Source of the DNA: an uncultured delta proteobacterium
Lineage (GTDB): Bacteria > Desulfobacterota > Desulfobacteria > Desulfobacterales > B30-G6
Direction: 5' to 3'
DNA length: 64,000 nt
Assembly (NCBI GenBank): GCA_963823335.1
Contig: CAWGLD010000002.1
Location: 32,001-96,000 of the forward strand
Below are positions 968 to 55,012 of the stretch, piece by piece. The translations under genes were made by a program, and so were the position numbers. Within the stretch, counting starts at the first letter, position 1. Every line of letters begins with the position of its first letter. The notes under the pieces were generated by a model, which was not told the DNA's origin, did not search any database, and was given only the letters and a program-made list of their open reading frames with translations.

Positions 968-1143
968 TGTTTGCTCCTGTTCAAACTGGCATTAGTATTT
1001 TTATTTTGAGAAAGTTCCTCGAACTTTCGACACCTTGTATGCTTGGACGCCAGGACGCGTGGAAGCTATAATGCTGCTGTCCGCTGATAGCTTTCAGCCA
1101 CCCTCGGACCCTTGTATCACCCTTGGTCCCTTTTACCTTTTTT

Positions 1144-1497
1144 TTACCATGAACCGTCAAGGCCACGCAGGCCTTCCATGTAAAGCTTTCCACTGGCCAC
1201 AAAAAGAGAATACCCGGTGAGCAACAACGGAATCTTGTAGGATGCTGCCAGGGCGATAACATGCTTTTCCGGCTGTTTACCCCGGACGAAAACGATGACT
1301 CCCACCCTGGCGACTTTTGCAGTGCGAATGACCTGCTCGGTGACGACACCGGTTAGCAGCGCACACCCTTCTGTGGCGGCTGCCAGCACATCATCCATGA
1401 GATCTGCGCTACCACCGCCTGCAATTGTGTTCTCCATCTGATCTTCACCCGATAGTACGGTCGCTTTCAGAGCATCTTTGATTTCAGCTATTTTCAT
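1144..1497 (-). CDS. DRTGG domain protein
   Basis: MKIAEIKDALKATVLSG..ADLMDDVLA..LLTG..IVFVRGKQP; start moved to ATG 1497. Confidence 0.75.
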   Translation of the reverse strand: MKIAEIKDALKATVLSGEDQMENTIAGGGSADLMDDVLAAATEGCALLTGVVTEQVIRTAKVARVGVIVFVRGKQPEKHVIALAASYKIPLLLTGYSLFVASGKLYMEGLRGLDGSW

Positions 1498-2951: not shown

Positions 2952-4289
2952 TTGCAGACGACATTTGACACCATCATTTACAATGCCACCATTGTGACCG
3001 TCAATGCGACCTTTGATATCGTCCCCAAGGGTATGATCGGAATAAAGAACGGCAAGATTGAATCGATTGCTGACATGCCGGACAAGGTCGATATTCCGAC
3101 CGGAATAAATGCAATCGATGCCGCAGGCGGTGTCGTTATGCCCGGGCTGATCAACACCCACACCCACATGCCCATGACACTCTTTCGTGGTCTGGCCGAT
3201 GACCTGCCCCTGGATGTATGGTTGAATCGATATATTTTTCCAGCTGAGGAGGCCTGGATCAATCCCGAAAATGTTCGCCTGGGTACGGCACTTGCGTGTG
3301 CGGAAATGTTGCTCTCCGGGACGACGACCGTCTGCGGAGGATACTTTTACGAAGGTGTGGTTGCGGAAATCGTGAACCAGGCAGGGATACGCGGGGTACT
3401 CGGGCAGGGGGTTATCGATTTCCCGGCACCTGGTGTACCGGATGCCGGAGAAAATATCAATGCGGCCATAGCTTTCATCAAGAAGTGGAATGGCTTGTCG
3501 CCGATGATCCAGCCTTCCATCTTTTGCCATTCACCCTATACCTGTTCAAAGAAAACCCTCAAAGCGGCTAAGACTGCAGCCAGATCCCAAGGCGTCCTTT
3601 TTCAAATTCATGCAGCCGAAACAGCCCGTGAAAAGACCTTGATCGAGGGCGGTGGCGATATGTCGCCTGTTCAATATCTCGACCATATTGGTGTCCTGGA
3701 TGCGCAGACCTTGCTGGTACATTCAATCTGGGTAGATGACGAGGATATCGACATCATCGCCAACAGCGGTGCGGCAGTGTCACACAACCCCGAGAGCAAC
3801 ATGAAACTGGCTTCCGGGATCGCTCCGGTTCAAAAATTTCTGTCTGCAGGCATCCCTGTCGGTCTGGGGACGGACGGCTGTGCGAGCAACAATGACCTGG
3901 ATATGTTTCAGGAGATGGACACGGCCGCGAAACTTCACAAGGCGCATACGCTTGACCCCACTGTCATGGATGTCAACTCGGTGCTGAAGATGGCTACCAT
4001 CGAGGCCGCCAGGGCCATCGGCCTGGATAGCAGAATCGGATCATTGGAAAAAGGCAAGCAAGCCGACCTGATTATCATCGACACCCACCAGCCGCATCTG
4101 ATGCCTATCTACAACCCTGTATCCCAGATCGTCTATTCGGCAAGAGGTTCTGACGTAAGAGATGTCATGGTGGCGGGCAGAATGCTGGTGCACAACAGGT
4201 CCCTGACATCCCTGGACCAGGATGACATTTTAAATAAGGTAAATGCACTGAGCAGGGAGATATCCCGGACTTTTCATGCTTCGCCGTAA
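2952..4289 (+). CDS. mtaD: amidohydrolase, MTA/SAH deaminase family
   Basis: PGLINTHTH, IHAAET, HNPESNMKLASG, GTDGCASNNDLDMF; purine salvage context. Confidence 0.8.
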   Translation: MQTTFDTIIYNATIVTVNATFDIVPKGMIGIKNGKIESIADMPDKVDIPTGINAIDAAGGVVMPGLINTHTHMPMTLFRGLADDLPLDVWLNRYIFPAEEAWINPENVRLGTALACAEMLLSGTTTVCGGYFYEGVVAEIVNQAGIRGVLGQGVIDFPAPGVPDAGENINAAIAFIKKWNGLSPMIQPSIFCHSPYTCSKKTLKAAKTAARSQGVLFQIHAAETAREKTLIEGGGDMSPVQYLDHIGVLDAQTLLVHSIWVDDEDIDIIANSGAAVSHNPESNMKLASGIAPVQKFLSAGIPVGLGTDGCASNNDLDMFQEMDTAAKLHKAHTLDPTVMDVNSVLKMATIEAARAIGLDSRIGSLEKGKQADLIIIDTHQPHLMPIYNPVSQIVYSARGSDVRDVMVAGRMLVHNRSLTSLDQDDILNKVNALSREISRTFHASP

Positions 4290-4304
4290 AATCGTGCAAC
4301 GATT

Positions 4305-4826
4305 CTATTCACCTTCAAACTGACACATGGTAAATATCTTTTGATCTTTGATTTTCTCCCGCCCCTTAAGCTCCGGCAGTTCTACGATAAAACCACATTC
4401 CAATATTTCACCACCCAGTTTTTTTACCAGTTTTACAGCGGCCTCGATGGTTCCGCCTGTGGCGATTAGGTCATCGATGATGACAACTTTTTCACCTTTG
4501 GCAATGGCATCTGCGTGCATTTCGACAGTATTTTCACCATATTCAAGAGTATACGGCGCAGAAACGGTCTTATAGGGCAGCTTGCCCTTTTTTCTTACAG
4601 GTACAAAGCCCACATTCAGCTGGTAGGCCAGGACAGCCCCGAAGACAAAACCTCTGGCGTCAATGCCAATGACCTTGTCAATTTTCATGTTTTTGTATCG
4701 ATTGAAAAATACATCGCAGGTGTACCGATACGCTTTTGGATTCTGCATGAGCGTGGTAAGATCCCTGAAAATCACGCCTTCAATGGGCCAGCCGGGGATG
4801 GATCTGATGGAAGCTTTTAAATCCAT
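4305..4826 (-). CDS. apt: adenine phosphoribosyltransferase
   Basis: FRDLTT, DARGF, RKKGKLP, YTLEYG, IIDDLIATGGT. Confidence 0.95.
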   Translation of the reverse strand: MDLKASIRSIPGWPIEGVIFRDLTTLMQNPKAYRYTCDVFFNRYKNMKIDKVIGIDARGFVFGAVLAYQLNVGFVPVRKKGKLPYKTVSAPYTLEYGENTVEMHADAIAKGEKVVIIDDLIATGGTIEAAVKLVKKLGGEILECGFIVELPELKGREKIKDQKIFTMCQFEGE

Positions 4827-5582
4827 TCATTGCTCCTGATTGATTTTTGGAATTACGTTTTGAAGCAGCTTTTTAACACTATCCGCATTCTGATTAAACA
4901 CAGCAAGAATTTCTTCCCATGAGACCGGTGCCTCATCTTCTTTCCAGCAATCATAGTCGGTAGACATGGCAACCGCCGCATAAGGTATGCCCGCTTCATT
5001 GGCCAGTATCGCTTCCGGGGCGATGGACATATTGATGATATCGGCACCCCAGGCCCTGAACATATGGGATTCGGCCCTGGTGGAGAACCGTGGACCCTCG
5101 ATGGTGACCACGGTTCCACCATTGTGTGTCGGGTAACCGAGCGCGACAGAGGTATGATATAGCGTGGTTCTCAGTTTTGGATCAAAAGGGTCGGCCATGG
5201 ACGTATGGGCTGCTCCTTTTTCAAAGGAGTCGAAAAATGTGTTTTTCCTGAAACGGGTAAAATCGATAAACTGGTCAACGATGACAAAGTGTCCTCTCTT
5301 TATTCCCTCACGGAGACTGCCGCATGCAGTCGTCGCAAGAATATGCGTTGCCCCCATGGATTTCAAGGCATGGATATTGGCCCGATTATTTACCTGGGTT
5401 GGGCTGTACTGGTGTTTTTTCCCATGCCGTGCGAGTAGGAGTGTTTCGGTGCCTTCGATCCGACCGCAGGTGAGTGTAGAGGACGGTTTGCCATAGGGCG
5501 TATCCACATTCACTGATGTTGCATCTTTGATTATGTCGGGGTCATCCAGACCCGACCCGCCGATTATTCCGACAACTGGCAT
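4827..5582 (-). CDS. mtnP: S-methyl-5'-thioadenosine phosphorylase
   Basis: GIIGGSG, ARHG, TACGSL, IEGPRFSTRAES, STDYDCW. Confidence 0.9.
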   Translation of the reverse strand: MPVVGIIGGSGLDDPDIIKDATSVNVDTPYGKPSSTLTCGRIEGTETLLLARHGKKHQYSPTQVNNRANIHALKSMGATHILATTACGSLREGIKRGHFVIVDQFIDFTRFRKNTFFDSFEKGAAHTSMADPFDPKLRTTLYHTSVALGYPTHNGGTVVTIEGPRFSTRAESHMFRAWGADIINMSIAPEAILANEAGIPYAAVAMSTDYDCWKEDEAPVSWEEILAVFNQNADSVKKLLQNVIPKINQEQ

Positions 5583-5615
5583 AACAAACTCCAGAACAAA
5601 TTCGTGTTTGTGTCT

Positions 5616-7748
5616 CTATTTCAGAATGATTCTGGCGTCCACGAGGCTCAAGCCATTTTCGTGAACGATGACCGGGTTTAAGTCCATTTCTTGAATTTCC
5701 GGATAGGATTCAATGATATCCGAGCAGAGCAACAGTAAATTGATCAGCGCTTTTTTGTCATATGGTGGATTGCCACGAATTCCGTTCAGGATCGGATAGG
5801 ATTTGGTTTCTTCCATCATCTGCCGGGCGGATGTACGGGTAAGAGGCAGCACCCGGAAAGCGACATCTTTCAATACCTCCACCATGATACCGCCCAGACC
5901 GTACATGATAACGGGGCCGAATTGATCATCGACTTTTGTTCCGATGATAATTTCCACCCCTTTTCTGGCCATGGGTGATACGAGGACGCCCCGGATGTCA
6001 GCCTCCGGGGAGAAGTGTCGGGCGTTTTTGACGATGGTGGCAAATGCATCCCGAATCTGCTTTTCCGTTTTCAGGTTGGTCATGACACCGCCTGCGTCAC
6101 TTTTGTGGAGGATGTCCGGTGACACGATTTTCAGGACAACCTCGTCTTTTATTTTTCCGGCAAAGCGCGTGGCTTCATCGGGTGTGGATGCCAGCAGATC
6201 TTTGGATACAGGCGCTCCATGCAGCCCGAGCAGCAATTTGGCTTCATTTTCCAACAGAGCGCTGCGATGTTCCGCCGTTGCTTTTTCCAGAATCGCTTTT
6301 CCATCAGGTCTTGCTTTGGCGCCCCAGTTCATGACGAAACTGGCTTTGGTATGATATTTTTTCAAATATGTGCCATACTCGGTCAGTACACCGATGCATT
6401 TGCAGGCCACATCCAGAGAATCATAAACCGGAATGTTGTAGTACCGCAGCAGATCGAGTGCGTGGGGCTTTTCCGAACTGTAAAGACTGTGAACCACAAT
6501 AGGCTTTTTACCCTTCTTGACCATTTTTCCCATTTGATGGGCGGCGTCCTCCTCCAGTAGGGCCAGGCTTTCGGCGAAGCGGATACCGTATCCACCGAAC
6601 AGTCCCACCAGCAGAAGTCCTCCCACATTGGGGTCCTTAAGGATGATTCTTGCGCAGTCGGCGAACAGGGAGGGGTCGGCGTCCGTACCACCGGCCACAT
6701 CCACCGGATTGGGCACAGATGCGGCAAAGGGCAAAATCTGTTTCAGTTTGTTGCGGGTTTTTTCAGTGAACTCCGGGATATTCACGCCGAGGTCGCTCAA
6801 GAGATCTGCAGCAATGGTGGCGTGCCCGCCACCATCCGCCAGGATTGCCACGCTGTTGTTCTTGATGGGCGGCAGGCTGGCCAGAGTCTCGGCCGCGGGA
6901 AAAAGATCGTTGGAATTTTCAATCAAGATGATACCGGCCCGCCGGAAAGCGCCCCGGGCCACCTCGGACATACCGGCCAATGCCCCGGTATGTGAACCTG
7001 CCGAACGTTTGCCGGTGGTTGAACGACCGCTTTTTAACAGGACAACCGGTTTGTCGATAGTGGTTGTATAGGCCTGTTGGAGAAATTCACGACCCTGTCG
7101 CATTCCTTCGACATACATCAATATGGCGCGGGTATCGGGATCCTGCCGGAAAAATTCAAGGTATTCATGAAACTTGATGTCCGCCTCGTTTCCCACGCCG
7201 ACATAATAGGAAAATCCCATGCGGCTCTTGAGCTTGGCTTCCGTGATCAGGGTCAAGGCCATGTTTCCGCTCTGGGTTAGAAGAGCGATATTGCCCCTGG
7301 GCGCATTTTTCAGCCCCACGAGGTTTAAGCGATCTTTCAGGTTCATCATACCGGAGGTGTTGGGACCGATGAGCCGGATCCCGTATTTTCGGGCTGTCTC
7401 CACCATTCGGGTTTCCAGGGCCCGCCCTTCTTCGCCCAATTCACCAAACCCTCCGGCAATGATAACGGCACCATGAACGCCCTTGAGACCGCAATCTGCC
7501 AGAATTGCCGGTGTTGTATTGGCTGGTGTGGTAATCAATGCGATGTCTACGGGGCCTTCAATTGCCGAAACCTTTGGATAGCATTTCAGACCCAAAATAC
7601 TCTTTTCCTTGGGGTTGACTGGATATATCCTGCCGCCGAATTTTTCATCGATGAGAATCCGGATGGCCTGATAACCTCTTTTGGTTTCATTGGTCGAGGC
7701 CCCGACAATTGCGACGGATTCCGCGTTTAAAACCTTTTCAAGAGACAT
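5616..7748 (-). CDS. acetate/acyl-CoA ligase (ADP-forming), alpha-beta fusion
   Basis: VAIVGAS, GPNTSG, QSGN, SHTGALAG, NPVD, ILHKSDAGGV, DLNPVIV. Confidence 0.9.
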   Translation of the reverse strand: MSLEKVLNAESVAIVGASTNETKRGYQAIRILIDEKFGGRIYPVNPKEKSILGLKCYPKVSAIEGPVDIALITTPANTTPAILADCGLKGVHGAVIIAGGFGELGEEGRALETRMVETARKYGIRLIGPNTSGMMNLKDRLNLVGLKNAPRGNIALLTQSGNMALTLITEAKLKSRMGFSYYVGVGNEADIKFHEYLEFFRQDPDTRAILMYVEGMRQGREFLQQAYTTTIDKPVVLLKSGRSTTGKRSAGSHTGALAGMSEVARGAFRRAGIILIENSNDLFPAAETLASLPPIKNNSVAILADGGGHATIAADLLSDLGVNIPEFTEKTRNKLKQILPFAASVPNPVDVAGGTDADPSLFADCARIILKDPNVGGLLLVGLFGGYGIRFAESLALLEEDAAHQMGKMVKKGKKPIVVHSLYSSEKPHALDLLRYYNIPVYDSLDVACKCIGVLTEYGTYLKKYHTKASFVMNWGAKARPDGKAILEKATAEHRSALLENEAKLLLGLHGAPVSKDLLASTPDEATRFAGKIKDEVVLKIVSPDILHKSDAGGVMTNLKTEKQIRDAFATIVKNARHFSPEADIRGVLVSPMARKGVEIIIGTKVDDQFGPVIMYGLGGIMVEVLKDVAFRVLPLTRTSARQMMEETKSYPILNGIRGNPPYDKKALINLLLLCSDIIESYPEIQEMDLNPVIVHENGLSLVDARIILK

Positions 7749-40866: not shown

Positions 40867-41007
40867 TGGTGGCCAGGATATTTGGAGGCTGGGAAGCTGG
40901 GATGCCTGGATGCTGCCCCATCGGTTGGAAGCTTTAAGCCGCCCTCCAACCCTTGTATCACCCTCGGACCCTCCAACCCTTCGAACCTGAATCCTTAAAC
41001 TCTCCTG

Positions 41008-41834: not shown

Positions 41835-42927
41835 TAGGGGACGTTCCTTGGTAAATTGATAATTATACTTTATACGAATCTTAAATTGTTATCCCTTGCG
41901 ATTTTTTCTCCGCGCTTTGCGGATTGGCTTACGGTCGGCTGAGATATTTTTAAACGTTTAGACAAGTCCACCATGCTCATGCCGAGTTCCCTCGTTGCCC
42001 AGAAACACAATAAGCTTCTGGCTTTCACCCGTATGGGTTGTCTACCCTTAGACAAAACGTCAGCAATTTCGATGCCCAATATTTCAGCGACACGAGCGAC
42101 AACAGAACTAAAATTGTATCCTTTGGCTTTCAATAAATATTTATGTTCGTATTCCTCCTGGCAGGATTGAAGCACGGCTTCGATAAAATCACTGTCGCCT
42201 AAAATTCTCTCATCTCCCTTCATATACACTCTTCTTTTTCTCAACTCTTTGAGAGCGTGCCAACCGCCTACACTTCTGACGAGACCGCCACCGACGAGAT
42301 CTGGCCTTTTTCCAGCGGATATTCCTTTTTGTATGTATTCGTGGTATTGCTGACGCGCTGATGACAACCTTCCAGGAAAATAATTAAGAATGTATTCAGT
42401 AGTTTGCCAATCATTTAGCTCAGTTCCAACTATCGCTGCATGACCGCTGTACCTGTATCTATCAAGCGAATTCAAATCCAGTACAATACCAGCGCGGAGA
42501 GGGTTCAAATGGATATATCTTACCAGTTCTAAGAGATATGTGTCTTCCTGGCAAAGAATTGATTTGTATCTATTCTGAAATAGATGACCGGCACGATCAT
42601 GTTTGTGATTGAAATAAACGGCATAACCGGTCAGTAGCCGTCTCATTATAGTTGAAATCGATGTATTGCCGGTTTTCAAAAGCAAATGAACATGATTGGG
42701 CATTAATGACCAGGCAAAGCAAAATGCTGCCCCATCCTTTATGATACTTTTAAATCGCTCAATAAAATTATCTCTATCGGCATCATCTTGAAAAATCGGT
42801 TTTTTATCGATTCCTCTCATAATAATATGATGTAAAGCCCCTGGGGCATCTATTCTTGATTGGCGTGGCATATTTATTTTATTACAGAGAACTATCACGA
42901 TGTCAAGATACAAAGGAACGTCCCCTA
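41835..42927. mobile_element. RAYT transposase element bounded by 15-bp perfect inverted repeats
   Basis: TAGGGGACGTTCCTT (41835-41849) and AAGGAACGTCCCCTA (42913-42927); more AT-rich than flanks. Confidence 0.75.
41870..42871 (-). CDS. REP-associated HUH tyrosine transposase (RAYT/Y1_Tnp) with C-terminal HTH
   Basis: MPRQSRID..HHIIMRG, MPNHVHLL, GHLFQNRYKS, YIHLNP, YSGH. Confidence 0.9.
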   Translation of the reverse strand: MPRQSRIDAPGALHHIIMRGIDKKPIFQDDADRDNFIERFKSIIKDGAAFCFAWSLMPNHVHLLLKTGNTSISTIMRRLLTGYAVYFNHKHDRAGHLFQNRYKSILCQEDTYLLELVRYIHLNPLRAGIVLDLNSLDRYRYSGHAAIVGTELNDWQTTEYILNYFPGRLSSARQQYHEYIQKGISAGKRPDLVGGGLVRSVGGWHALKELRKRRVYMKGDERILGDSDFIEAVLQSCQEEYEHKYLLKAKGYNFSSVVARVAEILGIEIADVLSKGRQPIRVKARSLLCFWATRELGMSMVDLSKRLKISQPTVSQSAKRGEKIARDNNLRFV

Positions 42928-43009
42928 AAATGGTGGAGGGTGTGTAAGTGATAAAATGCTTGAAATTCTTTGATAAGCGGGGGAAGATATCAAAATGTCG
43001 GCCAGGAAG

Positions 43010-43684
43010 ATGCACATAATCGAAAAGATACCTTTGGTGTTGCCCCTTGGAGAAATCAGGCGCCAGCTTCACCTGAAAAAGGACACACACTGGGATGAGG
43101 TCAAAGCTCTCATCCAGACAGTACTGCCGGATATTCAGGCCAAGGCAGTATACCGGGTTTGCTATATCGATGAAAAGCGGGACGATAGTATCGGCATGAA
43201 CGGGGTGCGCTTCAGAAGCCGGGTGCTGGCAAAAAACCTGTCAGAGGTGGAGCGGGTGTTCCCGTTCGTTGTCACCATCGGGAGCCACTATTTGGCGCAG
43301 GCCGACACGCAAAAGGATCTGGTAGTGAAATACTATCTCGACGTGATAGGCAACATTGCCCTGAGTAGCGTGCGAAAATATCTCGAACAATCGTTGCAGT
43401 CAAGGTATGGTCTCGAGGGCATGTCCTTCATGAGTCCCGGATCATTGGCGGATTGGCCTCTGGAAGAGCAGCGACCCCTGTTTACCCTGTTTGGAGACGG
43501 AAAAACCCCCATCGGTGTGTCCCTCAACAGCAACTGCCTGATGATCCCAACAAAATCGGTGTCCGGTATCTATTTTCCCACTGAGGTCCCATTTGTCAGC
43601 TGCCAGCTTTGTGACCGCAAGGATTGCTCTTCCCGAAAGGCTGCCTATGATCCAAAAATTGAAGCGGAATTTGGTGTGTCATAG
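43010..43684 (+). CDS. stand-alone MetH activation-domain-like protein
   Basis: FVVTIG, SPGSLADWPLEEQ, MIPTKSVSGI, C-terminal CQLCDRKDC. Confidence 0.75.
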   Translation: MHIIEKIPLVLPLGEIRRQLHLKKDTHWDEVKALIQTVLPDIQAKAVYRVCYIDEKRDDSIGMNGVRFRSRVLAKNLSEVERVFPFVVTIGSHYLAQADTQKDLVVKYYLDVIGNIALSSVRKYLEQSLQSRYGLEGMSFMSPGSLADWPLEEQRPLFTLFGDGKTPIGVSLNSNCLMIPTKSVSGIYFPTEVPFVSCQLCDRKDCSSRKAAYDPKIEAEFGVS

Positions 43685-43958: not shown

Positions 43959-44654
43959 ATGTGTACACAAAGCAAAATATGGGTGATCGGGGACAGCCAT
44001 ACACGGGCATTTTCATTTAATGACAATTTTATTCCTTTTTATATCGGTGAAGGAAAAGAACACTGTTTTTTAAGTGATCAACGCCTGTCTGATTTAATTT
44101 CAAAGGTGTTACATATTGTTAAAGAGGTTGTCGCTCAGGATTCGATCATTCTCTTCTTGGGAGAACCCGATACACGTTTCTATCTAGGAAGTGGATGGAA
44201 ACCTTGGAAAAAAAAATATAGATTTCCTATTATTAGAGGAAGATCGAAAATTAAAAAATCGTTCAAACGGTATTGTCAATTAATCAATGAGGTAAAGAAT
44301 AAAACAAATGCTAGATTATTGATATTAAATATTACGCCATCCAATAGAAAAGATCAGAATAAATTGGTTAATTATTTCAATCGGCTATTGTCGAAATATT
44401 GTTCGAAAGAAAAAGATGTGGCGTTTATCGATATAAATACAACTATTTATAATCCAAAAACAAAAACCGTCAGAGAAGAGTATTACGGTGATCATGTGCA
44501 TTTAAATATGAAACTTCAAATGCCTGTTGAAAAATGGTTGGTAGAAAAGGGAATTATTGAACGATCATTTTATGACGAAGAAAATACAATGGGCAAGAAA
44601 AAGCTAAAGAAAAACTTTAAGTATAATGAGAGATTTGGGTGTTATACTTTATGA
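43959..44654 (+). CDS. SGNH/GDSL hydrolase-like protein (AT-rich)
   Basis: IGDSH, GEPD, DHVH motifs. Confidence 0.6.
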   Translation: MCTQSKIWVIGDSHTRAFSFNDNFIPFYIGEGKEHCFLSDQRLSDLISKVLHIVKEVVAQDSIILFLGEPDTRFYLGSGWKPWKKKYRFPIIRGRSKIKKSFKRYCQLINEVKNKTNARLLILNITPSNRKDQNKLVNYFNRLLSKYCSKEKDVAFIDINTTIYNPKTKTVREEYYGDHVHLNMKLQMPVEKWLVEKGIIERSFYDEENTMGKKKLKKNFKYNERFGCYTL

Positions 44655-45008
44655 TGATAATATGCCATCATTTTTATTCTCTTTCAGCAATTGTGAACCA
44701 TAGTGACGTCTGAATTGTGTGGATGCATATTTTTCTAGTTTCCAGTCAGGGACGCCGCAGGCAGCGCAGGCCCCATTGAACCATTTGTTTCGAAGCCACC
44801 TAGCCGCACGGCTGTTTCTGGAGTTATTTACCATAAATGTTTTATTGCAATGGGTCGTGATACGGGCCTGGTCACCCATGATATCGATGGATTTGATACC
44901 ATGAAGGAGACCGCTTCTGGCCGGCCAGAGTTTTATCTTCTCTATCAAGCGGAAAAGCTCGACCCGTTTACGGTAAAATCGTTTGGCTGGTTTTTTTTGC
45001 TTTTTCAT
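44649..45008 (-). CDS. pylSn: pyrrolysyl-tRNA synthetase N-terminal (tRNA-binding) subunit
   Basis: KIKLWPARSGLLHGIK, THCN, NSRNSRAARWLRNKW, CAACGVPDWKLEKY. Confidence 0.92.
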   Translation of the reverse strand: MKKQKKPAKRFYRKRVELFRLIEKIKLWPARSGLLHGIKSIDIMGDQARITTHCNKTFMVNNSRNSRAARWLRNKWFNGACAACGVPDWKLEKYASTQFRRHYGSQLLKENKNDGILSS

Positions 45009-45094
45009 TCGATAATCTACAAATATTTCAGAAAGATTGACGATCGCCCCGGTGACCGATCTCGGCCCTGGCTTCCTTGACCCCTTCATTTTGA

Positions 45095-45958
45095 TCAACG
45101 CTTTTGAAGATGATCGAAACGAACATATGGGATTAAAACACCTACCACCATGGTTGCCACACCGATCTGAAGCGGGTCGTGAAGGAGTCTGTCACCGATG
45201 ATGTCCAGTGCTGACCTGTCAAGACCCAGGGGCATACCGGGAGCACTGATGATTGTATCGGACCTGATATGCTGCGCCAGAATGAAATTGCTTGCCGGGG
45301 ACGCATCGATCATGAGCTCATGTTGATGTAATGCCGGGTCGAGGTCGTGCAAATACTGAATCCCAACATCCGGGTCGTTCTTGAAATCTGCTGCCAGCGT
45401 TTCATATGCCGCGGGTTCGATGTCGTAGACAGAGATACGGCATCCTGTTTTCACCAGAGTTTTCACTGCGCTCTGCCCCACTGGCCCACATCCCAGGACA
45501 AGAACCTTGCGATCCTTCAAACACCCTGCCATGAGGTGCAGACCTGTCGCGAAACCCCTGCCGGTTGCATCGGCATTGTCCGCGAGTCTGCGCTGCTGCA
45601 TGTCAAGGGCCACAAAACGATCTTCATCGGCAAACATGAGGATGTCGGCCTTTTCTTCCACAGCTTCGGCGATACCGGAAGCATCTGTTTCCCGGGTGAC
45701 AAAAGCTCTGCAACCGATATGGTTGACAATTCCGGCCACGGTTTCACAAAATCCTTTTAGTACACCGTCACCCGATGTCATGGGTATCACACCGACAAGC
45801 GCATGTTCCATGGACGCCCGGATCTCTTTTTCGCTTACCTCCATTGCCCGGCAGGCAATCTGCCGCAGGGTGCAACCGGTCATTTTCATCAGCGATGATT
45901 CGTATGCGGGCAGGCTCTGGGCAATGCCTTGAATATTCTCCGTGGTCAGTCTGGTCAC
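45095..45958 (-). CDS. pylD: 3-methylornithyl-N6-L-lysine dehydrogenase
   Basis: MTRLT, PMTSGDG, DASG, ADEDRF, GCGPVG, APGMP, HDPLQIGVATM. Confidence 0.9.
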   Translation of the reverse strand: MTRLTTENIQGIAQSLPAYESSLMKMTGCTLRQIACRAMEVSEKEIRASMEHALVGVIPMTSGDGVLKGFCETVAGIVNHIGCRAFVTRETDASGIAEAVEEKADILMFADEDRFVALDMQQRRLADNADATGRGFATGLHLMAGCLKDRKVLVLGCGPVGQSAVKTLVKTGCRISVYDIEPAAYETLAADFKNDPDVGIQYLHDLDPALHQHELMIDASPASNFILAQHIRSDTIISAPGMPLGLDRSALDIIGDRLLHDPLQIGVATMVVGVLIPYVRFDHLQKR

Positions 45959-47145
45959 CTGAAGGATCCTTCCAAAAACAGGGATTGCTGGTCACCCCTA
46001 TGATCGATCGGGGTGGGATTCCTGTAGGTGTCGAGCTTGAAAAAGCGCATAATGTCGGCAATGACAGATTCCCGCTTTTCCCATGCCGCAGTTCTGCTTT
46101 CTGCGGAAATGATCAATGTTGCCACCCAATCCTTTCCATGATCCGACTGGCAGGTGATGGCTTCGTCGGCACCGAAAAAATTCTCGACCAGATGGAGAGG
46201 TCCTGCGAGGGCCATAGCGTGTTCACCCGTGACAGTCAATGTATCACCCCTGACCTTGATATGCTCGTACACGACGCCTCGCTGGGTAGAAGCCACTCCA
46301 TTGTGTGTGGCCTGGCAATGTTGCTCCGCCAGCAACTGGAGCATGTTGACACCGGTGGAGGCCAGCACGGTTATAGGGGTCTGACTGGGCAGGCGGGCAT
46401 CGATTTCAAGGACTCTCAGGATATCATTGTCTAAAATAACTTCTATGTCCATCAATCCCCTCAGGGTCAGAGCTTCGGCCGTGGTGGTGGCGATGCTTTC
46501 GAAATCCCCAATCAATTTCCGGGAAAGGCCTGAGGGTGCAAGCACTCGCTTGCAGTCAAAAAATGGATCCACTTCAATTTCGGTTACCTGAAGGGGACAA
46601 TAGTTTCCCGGGTAACCGATGATTTCCAAGGAGTATGAGGGTCCATGGACAAATTTCTGAATGACCTGCTCCTCCTGTGCCGTTGCAAGATGAGATTTGA
46701 GTTGTTTCAAGTCGTGGATAACACAAATTCCGTGACTTCCGCTGCCCTGACTCGGCTTTACGATGACGGGAAAACCGCTTTCGGGATAGGAAGTCGGTGT
46801 GGGGATGTGAATTCCGGTGAGCAATTTGTCTGATTCAATCTTGGAGGAGGTGACGGCATAGGCATCGAAATCGAAAAGAATTCGCCTCTGGTCATGTTGT
46901 GTGAAATTTTGAAGACACCTGAGGACGTCATGGTTTTCCAGAGCCGGTATGACCAGGTCAAACGGCTGCAGCAAGCGCTTCAAGTCAGTTTGGGAGGTAA
47001 TCTCGGCAAGCAAGAACTGCTGGCAGAGACCCGACGCCGGTACACCGGGCACCCTATCGATTATGGTCACATCCCAGCCGGCTTTTCCGGCCAGATATGC
47101 AGCTTCAACCCCTTGAAGTTTTCCACCGATGATCGCTACTTTCAT
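45955..47145 (-). CDS. pylC: 3-methylornithine--L-lysine ligase (ATP-grasp)
   Basis: IGGKLQGVEAAYLA, PALEN, GPSYSLE, DCKRV, EIDARLPSQTP. Confidence 0.92.
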   Translation of the reverse strand: MKVAIIGGKLQGVEAAYLAGKAGWDVTIIDRVPGVPASGLCQQFLLAEITSQTDLKRLLQPFDLVIPALENHDVLRCLQNFTQHDQRRILFDFDAYAVTSSKIESDKLLTGIHIPTPTSYPESGFPVIVKPSQGSGSHGICVIHDLKQLKSHLATAQEEQVIQKFVHGPSYSLEIIGYPGNYCPLQVTEIEVDPFFDCKRVLAPSGLSRKLIGDFESIATTTAEALTLRGLMDIEVILDNDILRVLEIDARLPSQTPITVLASTGVNMLQLLAEQHCQATHNGVASTQRGVVYEHIKVRGDTLTVTGEHAMALAGPLHLVENFFGADEAITCQSDHGKDWVATLIISAESRTAAWEKRESVIADIMRFFKLDTYRNPTPIDHRGDQQSLFLEGSFR

Positions 47146-47179
47146 ACCATATCCCAACACAATAAAACTACCCGGGGGC

Positions 47180-48022
47180 TTAAATATTTAAACGGATGCC
47201 ATCTAGATAAGCCAGGCTTCGGCCGAACCTGGCAAGATTCTTGGATTGATGGGATGCCATCAGGAGGCGTTCGAGGCCGAAACCGATTCCGATCCAGGCT
47301 TCATTTATTTTCCATGGCCGATCCAGTGGGTGGGGTCCCATGGCAGCAGAGGCGATTTCCAGATCCTCTTCCCCGGCCACGATATCCATGGTGTCGCCGT
47401 AGACTTCCGACGTCACGGTTTCAAAACGATAGTTTTTCACGCCTGCTGCCGTGGCCACACGTGAGCCCAGATCCTGGATTCTTTCTTTGCGTTTTTCTTC
47501 AGGTGTGCCCATTTCCACCAGGTTCAGCATGGTAAATTCACCGGCATGCTTTGCTCCCTTGGATTCTTTTCGGAAGCAGGGGCCGATTTCAAAGATTCGC
47601 ACAGGCCGTTCCCAAACGCGGAGCAGGTCGACCAGAAGGTAGTAGAGATGCGGCGCCAGCATCGGACGCAGGCATTTATCGTCCTGGAGCCAGAATATCT
47701 GGGAATTGAGCGGGTGTTTTGAATCGATTGACATCTTATTCAAAAGCCCCCTGGACATGATGATGGGGGTCGTTACCTGGGCAAAACCGATTTGCGTCAG
47801 CATTTCTGCGAGGTCGTTTTCAAGCCGGCATAGTTCAGGACGACCCTGTCTGGTCTGAAATTCAGCCAGTTGGTGTCGCTGCGTCATTACGAGGGATTTT
47901 TCCAGCGTTTGATACGCCTTATCACGAGCGGGTTCATCATCGAAGATCTTCTTCAACGTCGTGTCCGGGGCATTCAACGCATTCAATCGCTGTGCCTGTG
48001 TTTGGGTCCAAAATATTGGCAT
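47180..48022 (-). CDS. pylSc: pyrrolysyl-tRNA synthetase catalytic subunit
   Basis: WTQTQAQRL, CLRPMLAP, FEIGPCFRKES, EFTMLN, VYGDT, WIGIGFGLERL, YLDGIRLNI. Confidence 0.95.
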   Translation of the reverse strand: MPIFWTQTQAQRLNALNAPDTTLKKIFDDEPARDKAYQTLEKSLVMTQRHQLAEFQTRQGRPELCRLENDLAEMLTQIGFAQVTTPIIMSRGLLNKMSIDSKHPLNSQIFWLQDDKCLRPMLAPHLYYLLVDLLRVWERPVRIFEIGPCFRKESKGAKHAGEFTMLNLVEMGTPEEKRKERIQDLGSRVATAAGVKNYRFETVTSEVYGDTMDIVAGEEDLEIASAAMGPHPLDRPWKINEAWIGIGFGLERLLMASHQSKNLARFGRSLAYLDGIRLNI

Positions 48023-48110
48023 GGTTTTAAGTGTTACGTTTTAGGTTTTAGGTAAGCCACGAGCTGCGTGCTAAAAGCCAATGTCATCCAAAGGATAAAT
48101 GACTTTAAAA

Positions 48111-48184
48111 TGGCGGGGAGTACGGGAGTTGCACCCGTCTATGTGGATTTAGAGTCCACACGATCTCATTGCGATCCACCCCCC
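48111..48184 (-). tRNA. pylT: tRNA-Pyl (CUA)
   Basis: GGGGGGT-G-GATC-GCAATGA-GATC-G-TGTGGA-CTCTAAA-TCCACA-TAG-ACGGG-TGCAACT-CCCGT-ACTCCCC-GCCA: 6-bp anticodon stem, 3-nt variable loop, no TTC, G73, encoded CCA. Confidence 0.95.
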
Positions 48185-48274: not shown

Positions 48275-48916
48275 TTAGCCTGCTAAAAGTTCCTTAACCT
48301 TGCGTACACCGTCGCTTGCATCCTGGGCATAGGCATCGGCACCGATTCGATCTGCCCAGCGCTGGGTTACGGGGGCACCGCCCACGAGGGTCTTGTATTT
48401 ATCCCTTAACCCGGCCTTTTTCAAGGCCTCTTCGATTTGTTTCTGCACGGCCATGGTGGTGGTCAAAAGGGTGCTCGATCCGATAATGTCGGCCCCGAAT
48501 TTCTCAGCCTGGTCAATAAAACGATCGATGGGGGCGTCCCTCCCGATATCCAGTACATCGAAGCCATTGGCTTTGAACAATGCCACGACAATGGTTTTTC
48601 CAATATCGTGTACGTCGCCCTCTACCGTGCCCACCAAAACTTTTCCTGATACCGTTCCCTTACCGCCTGGGATGGCTGCATTGATGATTTCTGTGGCTTT
48701 TTCCATGGCCGAAGCGGACATGACCAGCTGGGGCAGAAAAAGTCTACCGGTTTCGAAAAGATCGCCCACCTGATTGATGCCGACGATAAAACCGTTGTTC
48801 ATCAGGTCCAGGGGATCCATACCAGTATCGATTCCTTTTTGGGCGGTGTCAACGGCTTTGCCGGCATCACCTTTCAGAATGGCCTCCACGGCTTCCTGGT
48901 AAATTGTTTCAGACAT
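48275..48916 (-). CDS. methyltransferase cognate corrinoid protein (MttC/MtbC-like)
   Basis: FLPQLVMSA, GTVEGDVHDIGK (DxHxxG), STLLTTT, VGGAPVT. Confidence 0.9.
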   Translation of the reverse strand: MSETIYQEAVEAILKGDAGKAVDTAQKGIDTGMDPLDLMNNGFIVGINQVGDLFETGRLFLPQLVMSASAMEKATEIINAAIPGGKGTVSGKVLVGTVEGDVHDIGKTIVVALFKANGFDVLDIGRDAPIDRFIDQAEKFGADIIGSSTLLTTTMAVQKQIEEALKKAGLRDKYKTLVGGAPVTQRWADRIGADAYAQDASDGVRKVKELLAG

Positions 48917-49154
48917 GTTACGTTCCTTTCTAATACGGGTTAGGAGAATTGAAATATCATTTTCGTTAAAAGACAAAGAGATCTGCCCGGTATGCCTTGA
49001 GATATGCCATACAGTAATCATCCAACCCATTGGGTCCGGTAAAACTAAGTCATTTTTTTGAAAAAGCCAAGACATAAAATATGGAACAATGCAGGTGTAT
49101 TGATTGTTCTACAAACCGCATGCGTTTCAAGTTCTAAAAAATAGGTGTATGCTT

Positions 49155-51590: not shown

Positions 51591-52078
51591 TCATGTGACA
51601 TATCCTTTATCGATGACATATTTTTTTTCAAAAGAGTAGGAATAAATATATTACCTGCCAATATTCCCTAACAGTCTCAATCTTGGTCAACCCATACGGC
51701 TTTGCCGATTAGTAAATCAAATCATGGCGATATTCAACCAACAATGCCAATTGCGCCTGGTATTTTTTTCTCATCAACGAGTGATGTAATTGGTCGATTG
51801 AAAGTTCAAACAATTGTATTGCTTTATTTCCTCGGTCTATCGAAGGTAGTGTATCAATCTAACTATCTAAAATAACAATGTATACTAAGATAAAATTCCT
51901 AACCTGTCTCTTGCTAAACCGAAAAGGATCTGTTACCATCACACCTGTGAAGAAAGGATTCTTACTGTTTAAAGATTTGAGCAATATGGACCAAGATTCC
52001 CTGTAACTTGCTGCAAAGTTCTTCAATACTTTCAACAACGTTGACAAGAAAGTGTTAAAAGAAAAAGGAGGTGATTTC

Positions 52079-53551
52079 TTGAAACGCAATATGCGCGCTG
52101 GAAAAAGCAGGAATGGCGGTTTAGAATTCAAAGTTTTTACCGATGATGAAATGGATGAAATTCATCTGGCTACGCTTGAAGTCTTGGAAAAGACGGGCCT
52201 TTTTTTCGATGATGAAGAAGCCCTGGAGCTTCTCGATGGTGGCGGGGTCGTCGTCGATAAGAATAGCCGAACTGCCAAATTTCCCCCGCACGTGGTTGAG
52301 GATGCCATCCGCTCAGCACCACCAAAAATTTTGTTGGCCGGGCGGGATGAAAAAAACGACTTTGTTATGGAAAAGAACCGCGTGGGGTTTACGAATTTTG
52401 GGGAGGGTGTTTTCATCAACGACCCATACACGGGAGAGCATCGGGAGACGACCAAGGCGGATGTGGCTGCCTCGGCATTGATCGCCGACTACCTGAGTGA
52501 AATCGATGTTTACGAACGGGCCGTTGGCGCTAGTGATGTGCCGACACAGTCGGTTCAACTTCACAACGCTGAAGCATGGATGCCAAATACGACCAAACAT
52601 GGATTCATGGGATCAGGCAATGGGTATTTGACGAAAAAACTGATTGAAATGGCTGCCGTCATTGTCGGGGACAAAGAAAAACTGAAGGAGCGTCCCATCA
52701 TTTCATTTATTACTTGTCCGGTCAGTCCCCTGCAACTCGTTAAGGACAGCTGTGAAATTATCATGGAATCCGCCCGGGCGGGCTTGGCCGTCAATGTTTT
52801 ATCCATGGCCATGGCCGGCGGATCATCTCCAGTGACACTGGCCGGGACGCTGGTGGATCATAACGCAGAAATCCTCGGGGGACTTGTGCTCAGTCAATGC
52901 ACCCGCAAGGGGGCAAAATTCATATATGGCAGTTCTACTACCGCTATGGATTTGAGGCTGGCTGCCGCATCTGTGGGATCTCCCGAATGTGCTTTGATCA
53001 ACGCTGCGGTGGCCCAAATGTCGATTTACTATCTACTTCCCAGCTGGGTTGCCGGCGGGTAGGGCGACAGCAAAGTCTGTGATGCCCAGTCCGGTCACGA
53101 AAAAACCATCACAGGCCTGTTACCAGCGTTGGCAGGCGCCAACCTGATTTACGGCCTGGGAATGATCGAAATGGGCATGACCATTGATTTTGGCCAGCTG
53201 GTTATGGACAATGAATTCGCCAAGATGATCAAATTCTTATTGCACGGCATCCCCGTCAATGACGAAACCCTTGCAGTTGATGTCATTCGGGAGATTGGGA
53301 TCGGGAAAAATTTCCTTAGTCATGACGCCACGTTCAAACACATGCGGTCTCAATCCCAGCCCAAACTGATTGACCGCAGAATGCGAGAGGAATGGGAAGC
53401 ATCCGGCAGTAAAGATATTCATGAAAGGGCGTCGGAAGAGGCACGGCATATTCTGGAAACTCACAAACCCGAGCCACTGCCCGATGACGTTCTGACTACC
53501 CTTCGATCCATCGTGGTGGAAGCAGAAAAAGAACTGGGGGTTCCCAAATAA
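52079..53551 (+). CDS. mttB: trimethylamine:corrinoid methyltransferase, Pyl at TAG 53060-53062
   Basis: AAGGAGG RBS + TTG; ..[43 protein letters not shown] continuous in frame (490 aa). Confidence 0.93.
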
Positions 53552-53564
53552 GAAAGGAGATCTT

Positions 53565-54950
53565 ATGGGAAAAATCATGACGAGAATGGGTGACGGGTTT
53601 CCCGTTGAAATGAGTGAAAGCCAACTCATGGGAGATCTGGAGGAAGGCACGGAAGATGCGGCCGAATATGGCGATATCCCCACTCTTTCCAAAGAAGAAC
53701 TGCAATATCTGTTCGATCTTTTTACTGCACCGTATCGTGTTGTTGGTGTAGAACCTGGCCATGAGGTCGTACTTTCTTATGATGGCGCCCCGCTCAAAAT
53801 GATGCGTACCGCCATCGATGTTCATCGACTGCAGGCATCGCAGATCTATGAAAAACTGCTGGGGGCAGACACCCTTGAATTGGGTCATGTCGATTACAGT
53901 TACAAGCCGGTCAAACCCATCGTCAGCATGGAGCAGACCGTTCTGGAGCAAGTATTGATGGTGACGCACGCGCCACTTTTCTACGGCGCTATGCCGAATC
54001 TGGGTCTATATACGCAACCGGACGGCCCTTTCCCAAACCCATCGGAATTATTGGCCATGGGAAAGATCGGTGATGTTCAGGAATCTTATGAGAATGCAAT
54101 AGACGCCGCTGTCAAGGATATTGTCTTTGTCGCCAGCGCCATGGTTGAATCCGGAGCAGATGGTATAAATCTTGATACCGTAGGTGCTGCGGGGGATGCT
54201 GATTTCCTGGCCGGTTTGAAAGCTACTGAGATTCTGAAAGAAAAATACCCGGACATCTGCATTGAGCTAGGAATGGCTGGTGAGTTTGTTCTTGGGATGC
54301 ACGGGGAATTAACTTACCAGGGTGAGCGCTTGGCCGGTATGTATGCCCATGATCAAGTCAGGATGGCGGAAAAAGCGGGCGTTACCATTTTTGGTCCCGT
54401 GGTGAATGTCAAAACTAACGCTTCCTGCCCCTGGAATCTGGCACGGGTAGTCACATTTACCAAGGCCTGCTGTGAGGTGGCCAACATTCCGGTCCATGCA
54501 AATATGGGTATGGGCGTCGGGGGGGTCCCTATGACCAATCACCCGCCGGTAGACATTACCTCAAGAGCCTCTGCGGCCATGGTGGAAATCTGCCGGCTCG
54601 ACGGGTTGTAGGTTGGCGTAGGTGATCCGCTTGGCATGGCCATTTCACACGCTATTGCCTCGGGCATGGGCGGAATGCGGGCTGCCGGAGATCTGGTGGC
54701 GCGAATGCAAATGACCCATGGCATGAAGATTAACGATGCAAAGGCGTATGTGGCCGACAAGTTGCGTGTTTCAGTTTCCGACCTTTCCGACCCGGTGGTA
54801 ATGATGGAAGTTCGGGAAGATTTGGATATTGGAAGTCTTTCCCCGCTGCCTGGATGCGCAAAGGGAATCGAAGCTAAAATTCGTATTGCCAAAGTTCTGG
54901 ATATTGATATCAACTGTGTCAAGCGTCTAGAAGGCAAGAAACTGATATAG
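53565..54950 (+). CDS. mtbB: dimethylamine:corrinoid methyltransferase, Pyl at TAG 54609-54611
   Basis: [55 protein letters not shown] continuous in frame (461 aa). Confidence 0.93.
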
Positions 54951-55012
54951 ATTTTAATCGGAATTGTTGTATCGATAGGTTGAACAACAGGGCAAGGCGT
55001 ATTTACTGACCA

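Follow-up and report, generated by a model that had tools for sequence, protein, structure and literature searches.

In bacteria, the pyrrolysine (pyl) genes are known from a canonical cassette with the order pylT-pylSc-pylB-pylC-pylD-pylSn, described for Desulfitobacterium hafniense (in the cited part of PMC11467909) and for the delta-1 symbiont of Olavius algarvensis (in the cited part of PMC1976440). In the archaeon 'Candidatus Methanomethylophilus alvus', according to the sections of Borrel et al. (2014; PMC3941956) on which we draw, pylB lies approximately 0.7 Mb from the pylTSCD cluster. A laboratory system consists of pylTSCD in E. coli supplied with D-ornithine, which leads to desmethyl-pyrrolysine, or pyrroline-carboxy-lysine (Pcl) (Cellitti et al. 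2011, as cited in the same part of PMC11467909). Here, we analyze the pyl genes in a 64,000-nt stretch of DNA (the window, whose numbering we use throughout) on contig C2 of the genome of an uncultured delta proteobacterium of the Desulfobacterales (assembly GCA_963823335.1, hereafter G000). The window contains pylT-pylSc-pylC-pylD-pylSn beside methylamine methyltransferase genes with in-frame TAG codons, and it contains no pylB. A first-pass annotation, made from the window alone, took this as possible natural encoding of Pcl or an auxotrophic pathway, and named a pylB elsewhere in the genome as the simplest option. We found an intact pylB on contig C1 of the same assembly, and gene content indicates that G000 very probably has an ordinary pyrrolysine system whose genes are split between two places.

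RESULTS

An intact pylB on contig C1

The G000 assembly is a draft of 11 contigs and 4.37 Mb, with 93.9% completeness and an estimated 4.6% contamination. We searched the whole assembly in six frames with the PylB profile TIGR03910, which has an equivalog cut-off of 348.2 bits. A single match exceeded this value (C1:1461420-1462460, 455.1 bits), covering model positions 2 to 347 of 347, and the remaining two matches reached only 24 and 19 bits. The match lies in a stop-free frame of 360 aa (G000:C1:1461405-1462487), and pylB, pylC, and pylD are each single-copy in G000. When the protein was compared with NCBIfam, PylB was the highest-scoring family at 455.4 bits, followed by HydE at 114 bits. 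The radical S-adenosylmethionine (radical-SAM) motif CxxxCxxC is present as CRNDCIFC, and the Radical_SAM domain PF04055 matches at 64.1 bits. Among solved structures, the closest relative is Methanosarcina barkeri PylB (3T7V, E 2.7e-82, residues 17-348); matches to HydE (3e-28) and BioB (2.9e-10) are weaker.

To judge the integrity of the C1 protein, we aligned 37 rows of the clade formed by the detached copies with 93 more distant PylB rows, which comprise 10 cassette copies from relatives and 83 database matches at ≤60% identity, the latter given without genomic context. There were 97 columns conserved in ≥97% of the distant rows, and 94 of these are retained in ≥90% of the detached clade. 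No fixed clade-specific change was found between the 37 clade rows and the 93 distant rows. The G000 protein itself departs from the family at two of the 97 columns, by H109N and by one E to D substitution.

We estimated pairwise dN/dS by the Nei-Gojobori method for the 10 pairs among G000 and four congeners (G001, G004, G005, and G006). For the detached pylB, dN/dS was 0.13 to 0.25 in all 10 pairs; for the same pairs it was 0.17 to 0.31 for pylC, 0.18 to 0.35 for pylD, and 0.12 to 0.25 for pylSc. Given these comparable values, purifying selection on the detached pylB is as strong as on the rest of the pathway.

Neighborhood of pylB and linkage of C1 to C2

On C1, pylB is part of a row of genes on one strand. 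Upstream are genes for a branched-chain-type permease, a methyl-tetrahydrofolate (methyl-THF):corrinoid methyltransferase (NF005719, 359 bits), a gamma-aminobutyrate (GABA)-type class-III aminotransferase (TIGR00700, 549 bits), and an aldehyde:ferredoxin oxidoreductase (AOR); downstream are two ATPases, two permeases, and a binding protein of a branched-chain-type ATP-binding cassette (ABC) transporter. The spacers around pylB are 55 nt before and 92 nt after the gene. In all four congeners used for the dN/dS comparison, the same ABC-ATPase genes likewise follow pylB directly, and in three of them the AOR gene is just upstream of pylB, G004 being without it. Across the five species that share this locus, the flanking proteins are 79 to 97% identical and PylB is 76 to 85% identical. 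The neighborhood of pylB is different in two further congeners, G008 (L008) and G009 (L009:6297-11038). There, an Opp-type ABC transporter and a C-N hydrolase are encoded upstream of the gene, and downstream of it come a sigma-54 activator and a glycyl-radical enzyme pair, which comprises a radical-SAM activase that has ferredoxin domains and a pyruvate formate-lyase-like glycyl-radical enzyme.

The methyl-THF:corrinoid methyltransferase gene three genes upstream of pylB (C1:1457355-1458215; L021:936-1799) is the sole close copy in G000. In G004 to G009, a 76 to 78% identical methyltransferase gene is found next to the pyl cassette, flanked by the corrinoid protein gene and a hydantoinase-like gene. 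Because the methyltransferase gene and pylB are both found there, the C1 locus of G000 hosts two parts of the methylamine pathway.

Two properties common to C1 and C2 indicate that the contigs belong to one genome. Their tetranucleotide composition is correlated at r 0.985, and a dispersed repeat family, detected by blastn in 94 copies on nine of the 11 contigs, has 36 copies on C1 and three on C2, two of the latter in the window. The repeats are intergenic and approximately 100 to 160 nt long (for example, L021:7570-7731 and window positions 1033-1145 and 40884-40980), and congener G007 has more than 40 copies of the same family. C1 is the largest contig, with 2.0 Mb of the total, and itself bears TAG-containing mtbB and mttB copies. 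If C1 and C2 are one replicon, pylB and the cassette are separated by at least 622,260 nt (at least 0.62 Mb).

Use of the system and hints of transcription

All five mtbB copies in G000 have exactly one TAG, at the pyrrolysine position, and six mttB copies have a TAG at the aligned position; an additional 11 MttB-family matches have an ordinary residue there. The retention of a single TAG at this position in all five mtbB and in six mttB copies indicates that the pyrrolysine system is in use. Together with dN/dS values of 0.12 to 0.35 for the pyl genes, this bears out the view of the first-pass annotation that the system is under selection.

Parts of pylB are contained in 20 public sequencing runs, eight of them recorded as RNA. 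We compared contigs from three metatranscriptome runs and one DNA run at ≥95% identity, and those of all four runs span most of the AOR-pylB-ABC segment. A 1505-nt contig of RNA run X4 corresponds to L021:4698-6148, which takes in the 3' end of the AOR gene and the whole of pylB, with 18 differences. Uncovered bins in runs X9 and X13 were not taken as absence. We treat the metatranscriptome contigs as a hint that pylB is transcribed. The contigs of all three metatranscriptome runs part from G000 at L021:6148, 13 nt before the start of the ABC ATPase gene, which suggests a strain variant of the spacer between pylB and the ABC genes.

The cassette in the window

The pyl genes and methyltransferase genes of the window are listed in Table 1. 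We judged the pyl gene calls against NCBIfam equivalog cut-offs, and all four cassette open reading frames (ORFs) exceed theirs. The only tRNA that ARAGORN reports in the entire window is tRNA-Pyl. The pylC frame is open from a GTG at 47160 (45955-47160). The PylC model aligns only from residue 7, so the start is likely the ATG at 47145, and it follows from this start that 34 nt separate pylC from pylSc. The true start of pylSn may be an internal ATG near 45008, as the PylS_Nterm model aligns from residue 44.

Table 1. Pyrrolysine and methyltransferase features of the window
Feature	Position	Strand	Basis
mttB, trimethylamine methyltransferase; in-frame TAG 53060-53062 (codon 337), peptide VAGG-X-GDSK	52052..53551	+	PF06253 293.7 bits
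mtbB, dimethylamine methyltransferase; in-frame TAG 54609-54611 (codon 349)	53565..54950	+	PF09505 658.9 bits
Methyltransferase-cognate corrinoid protein, MtbC/MttC-like	48275..49075	-	TIGR02370 237.9 bits, cut-off 215.3
pylT, tRNA-Pyl, anticodon CTA	48111..48184	-	ARAGORN
pylSc, catalytic subunit of pyrrolysyl-tRNA synthetase, 280 aa	47180..48022	-	TIGR02367 (PylS_Cterm) 326.5 bits, cut-off 178.15
pylSc-pylC spacer, 34 nt; slot of pylB in canonical bacterial cassettes, no remnant	47146..47179	-	sequence; tblastn
pylC, 3-methylornithine--L-lysine ligase	45955..47145	-	TIGR03909 389.6 bits, cut-off 248.3
pylD, 3-methylornithyl-N6-lysine dehydrogenase, 287 aa; 4-nt overlap with pylC stop	45095..45958	-	TIGR03911 251.3 bits, cut-off 150.05
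pylSn, N-terminal subunit of pyrrolysyl-tRNA synthetase	44649..45098	-	TIGR03912 (PylS_Nterm) 132.2 bits, cut-off 51.15

We looked for a pylB remnant by searching the window with tblastn, using three PylB proteins as queries (G000's own and the cassette-type proteins from G002 and G010). At E≤10 this returned only noise; the best match had 27.7 bits (E 0.028), and no match lay close to the cassette. The CxxxCxxC motif is absent from all stop-to-stop frames of ≥100 aa in the window. The window copies of mttB and mtbB span the full length of their Pfam families once the TAG is read through and are intact besides the amber codon. The description that the first-pass annotation had given of the window therefore stands, namely an intact and tightly packed cassette, a 34-nt gap between pylSc and pylC without a pylB remnant, no radical-SAM CxxxCxxC protein, and intact mttB and mtbB with amber codons.

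The window mtbB appears to terminate on a second TAG (54948-54950), with a TGA 11 codons further (region 54948-54983). On the other side of the cassette, an ORF at 41870-43090 (minus strand) has an IS200-like Y1 transposase domain and a weak DnaA_C-like helix-turn-helix match (20.1 bits, under the gathering cut-off of 31.5 bits). It holds the same place next to the pyl cassette in G001, G002, and G004 to G007, at 76 to 84% identity, and such constancy of position is not the behavior of a recently mobile element.

Arrangement of the pyl genes in the genus and the order

The pylSc-pylC adjacency that had stood out in the first-pass annotation is shared with relatives. We compared G000 with 40 related genomes, which gives ten genomes in the genus, G000 included; in eight of these ten, pylSc is followed directly by pylC. 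In seven of the eight (G000, G001, G004, G005, G006, G008, and G009), pylB lies on a contig other than that of the cassette; the remaining one is G007, considered below. The canonical order Sc-B-C-D-Sn is found in G002 and G003.

At the level of the order, we sampled 401 genomes, 55 with pylC and 56 with pylB, and corrected the categories by inspection of the loci. The two genes adjoin in 41 of the 55 pylC-bearing genomes (G002, G003, and 39 others). In 11 of the 55, distributed over four genera, pylB is detached: in 10 it is on a different contig and the pylSc-pylC junction is verified (the seven of this genus plus G107, G159, and G123), and in G210 it lies approximately 5 kb off, on the other strand, next to pylSn. 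G126 falls outside both groups; its pylSc-pylB row runs to a contig end and pylC begins another contig, so that it is probably a canonical cassette broken by assembly. In G362, pylC runs to a contig end and the missing pylB is uninformative. The last of the 55 is G007, whose assembly contains no pylB.

Three genomes of the order sample have pylB without pylC (G127, G330, where it is a fragment, and G342). G342 shows the opposite kind of incomplete cassette, a pylSc-pylB-mtbB row (L045), and no pylC was found at E≤1e-60 in this 93%-complete genome. Given that detachment recurs in four genera and has a precedent in 'Ca. M. alvus', the split arrangement is of a known kind. A limited literature search, with supplementary files outside its reach, turned up no published account of a detached pylB in bacteria.

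We considered whether the detached genes of the different genera form one 'solitary-type' clade and rejected this, as G107, G159, and G210 fall outside the genus clade in a 32-row quick tree. The order sample also includes a divergent PylB-like clade (L040 and L041 in G123, L042 in G148, and L044 in G127) on a stem of 1.23 changes per column. Its members score 434 to 438 bits against TIGR03910, over the cut-off, and always lie apart from the cassette. The copies in G123 (L040) and G148 are within a few kilobases of mtbB; G123 has two copies, and G127 is without pylC.

Within the genus, the tree of PylC, PylD, PylSc, and PylSn has the topology ((G008,G009),(G003,(G002,(G001,((G000,G005),(G007,(G004,G006))))))). 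The eight-row clade has support of 100/100, and the placements of G003 and G002 have 84/91 and 88/95. The earliest branch of this tree holds G008 and G009; the canonical G003 and G002 diverge next, ahead of the remaining genomes. The pylB-less state of the cassette is thus not one clade, and its distribution needs at least two events.

Congener G007

G007 nests inside the split clade on the same tree. In its cassette (L014, approximately 4052-7441 of the locus), pylSc is followed directly by pylC-pylD-pylSn with no pylB between, and four intact mtbB genes in the genome each contain a single TAG. The assembly is 95% complete with 7% contamination, and in it TIGR03910 reaches only 23.4 bits at best. 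An 11-kb DNA query of the pylB locus was swamped by the dispersed repeat, with 40 of 173 candidates scored; a 5.7-kb repeat-free DNA query for the AOR/pylB/ABC locus matched distant paralogues only. The transporter binding protein of the locus was not found in G007 at E≤1e-20. The entire AOR/pylB/ABC locus of its kin is therefore absent from this assembly. An assembly gap is far likelier than a true loss of pylB, and we regard it as decidedly unlikely that G007 is a natural pylB-less decoder. If pylB were truly absent, G007 would have to obtain 3-methylornithine or pyrrolysine by scavenging, or else use D-ornithine to make Pcl for insertion.

DISCUSSION

The detached pylB of G000 is present, intact, conserved, under purifying selection, and in a synteny shared with congeners. 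With it, G000 has a full decoding set: tRNA-Pyl (CUA) with pylSc and pylSn, the genes pylB, pylC, and pylD, and methyltransferase genes with in-frame TAG. On this gene content, we are highly confident that G000 has an ordinary split pyrrolysine system, in which the residue at UAG would be ordinary pyrrolysine and not Pcl. Its genes would act from two places, pylT-pylSc-pylC-pylD-pylSn by the methylamine methyltransferase genes and pylB, for a radical-SAM methylornithine synthase, on C1. Following established pathway knowledge, PylB would convert L-lysine to (3R)-3-methyl-D-ornithine, PylC would join this product to a second lysine, and PylD would give pyrrolysine by oxidation and ring closure; PylSc and PylSn would then charge tRNA-Pyl, which would read UAG in mttB and mtbB.

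Several points weigh against this view, and two alternatives draw on them. The enzymatic activity of the C1 PylB and the identity of the residue at UAG are inferred rather than directly demonstrated; RNA-library contigs can contain DNA and give neither strand nor level; and a scan for promoters and terminators around pylB was no richer than shuffled sequence (6 vs 5.1; 6 vs 5.4). At position 109, an otherwise invariant column in which all 93 distant rows have His, the G000 PylB has Asn. If the C1 pylB were silent, inactive, or otherwise employed, PylC and PylD could use D-ornithine, giving natural Pcl, or imported 3-methylornithine. The location of pylB apart from pylC and pylD, which could uncouple its expression from theirs, fits such a scenario, and its biochemical basis, as raised in the first-pass annotation, is real: according to the cited part of PMC11467909, in E. 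coli, PylC, PylD, and PylRS accept D-ornithine, from which desmethyl-pyrrolysine is formed and inserted. We nevertheless consider it very unlikely for G000, where pylB is intact, stands 107 bits over its cut-off, belongs to a clade in which 94 of 97 conserved columns are retained, and experiences purifying selection like that on pylC and pylD. The gene is also kept beside the same ABC-transporter genes in five species and is seen in metatranscriptome contigs. The other alternative is a binning artefact, in which C1 comes from an organism other than that of C2 and the true genome is without pylB. The linkage of the contigs rests on composition, shared repeats, and congener synteny in a draft rather than a closed genome; the estimated contamination would allow a foreign contig, and in none of the seven split genomes of the genus do pylB and the cassette share a contig. 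Such an error is highly improbable given that C1, as the largest contig, is the core of the bin, that its tetranucleotide composition and dispersed repeats match those of C2, that it carries TAG-bearing mtbB and mttB copies of its own, and that four other assemblies of the genus pair the same pylB-ABC locus with the same pylB-less cassette.

A different question, which does not conflict with the functional reading, concerns the origin of the detached gene. It may be a second lineage, either an old duplicate or horizontally acquired, that took the place of the cassette copy, the species of the genus having reciprocally lost one or the other; we hold this tentatively, at somewhat less than an even chance. 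All seven detached PylB proteins of the genus fall in a single clade (100/99), whose stem is long (0.55 changes per column). The cassette PylB proteins of G002 and G003 group with that of G010, from another genus (88/91). The G000 PylB is only 49% identical to those of G002 and G003, compared with 68 to 76% for PylC and 87% for PylSc. A second lineage would also agree with the scatter of the pylB-less state over the tree of the other Pyl proteins, with the different surroundings of pylB in G008 and G009, with the 'empty' site of G002, where the permease gene is followed directly by the ABC ATPase genes, and with G148, which has a cassette pylB and an extra copy. However, one PylB clade for the whole genus is not rejected by the approximately unbiased (AU) test (p 0.427). 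The data may thus also fit one duplication or move with rapid change after it, and we do not claim horizontal transfer. The placements of G002 and G003 are only moderately supported, and both assemblies are fragmented, with completeness of 93% for G002 and 74% for G003. The G003 assembly does not include the slot between the AOR and ABC genes: the AOR contig stops approximately 110 nt past the AOR gene, the ABC contig starts at the ABC start, and the tail after AOR gave no alignment to the pylB 5' end. Both pylB copies together were seen in no genome of the genus.

Overall, the interpretation offered by the first-pass annotation divides in two. Its simplest option, a pylB elsewhere in the genome, proved correct, the C1 gene being intact and over the equivalog cut-off. 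Because of that same gene, which the annotation had itself named as a refutation, its title reading of natural Pcl or an auxotrophic pathway is not supported for G000. A pylB-less pyl cassette in one window is no evidence for a new genetically encoded residue, and a tempting false lead is thereby removed. For annotators and for surveys of the genetic code, the whole assembly should be searched before a pyrrolysine system is called incomplete. Detachment of pylB is seen in four genera, and its distribution within this genus requires two events or more; this is of minor evolutionary interest and makes the pyl 'cassette' less of a unit in the Desulfobacterales than the textbook bacterial order suggests. 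Detachment frees pylB for separate loss or regulation, and a natural pylB-less decoder, although improbable, may exist in the genus; G000 is not one.

Compared with the systems described previously, G000 has the same gene set as the canonical bacterial cassette, with the same order and strand for pylT, pylSc, pylC, pylD, and pylSn and the same linkage to mttB and mtbB with in-frame TAG; it differs in having only the short spacer between pylSc and pylC and in having pylB on another contig. The window alone shows a pylB-less pylT/S/C/D row like that of the laboratory system fed with D-ornithine, but the natural genome, unlike the laboratory system, provides pylB in trans, and nothing here points to a D-ornithine supply or to Pcl being used. 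As far as the cited sections of PMC3941956 describe it, 'Ca. M. alvus' resembles G000 in its single-copy pyl genes, in a remote pylB, and in a pyl cluster beside methylamine methyltransferase genes. It is an archaeon whose PylS is without the N-terminal domain, whereas G000 is a bacterium with split pylSc and pylSn, and the detached pylB of G000, unlike that of 'Ca. M. alvus', lies inside a row of GABA-aminotransferase, AOR, and ABC-transporter genes.

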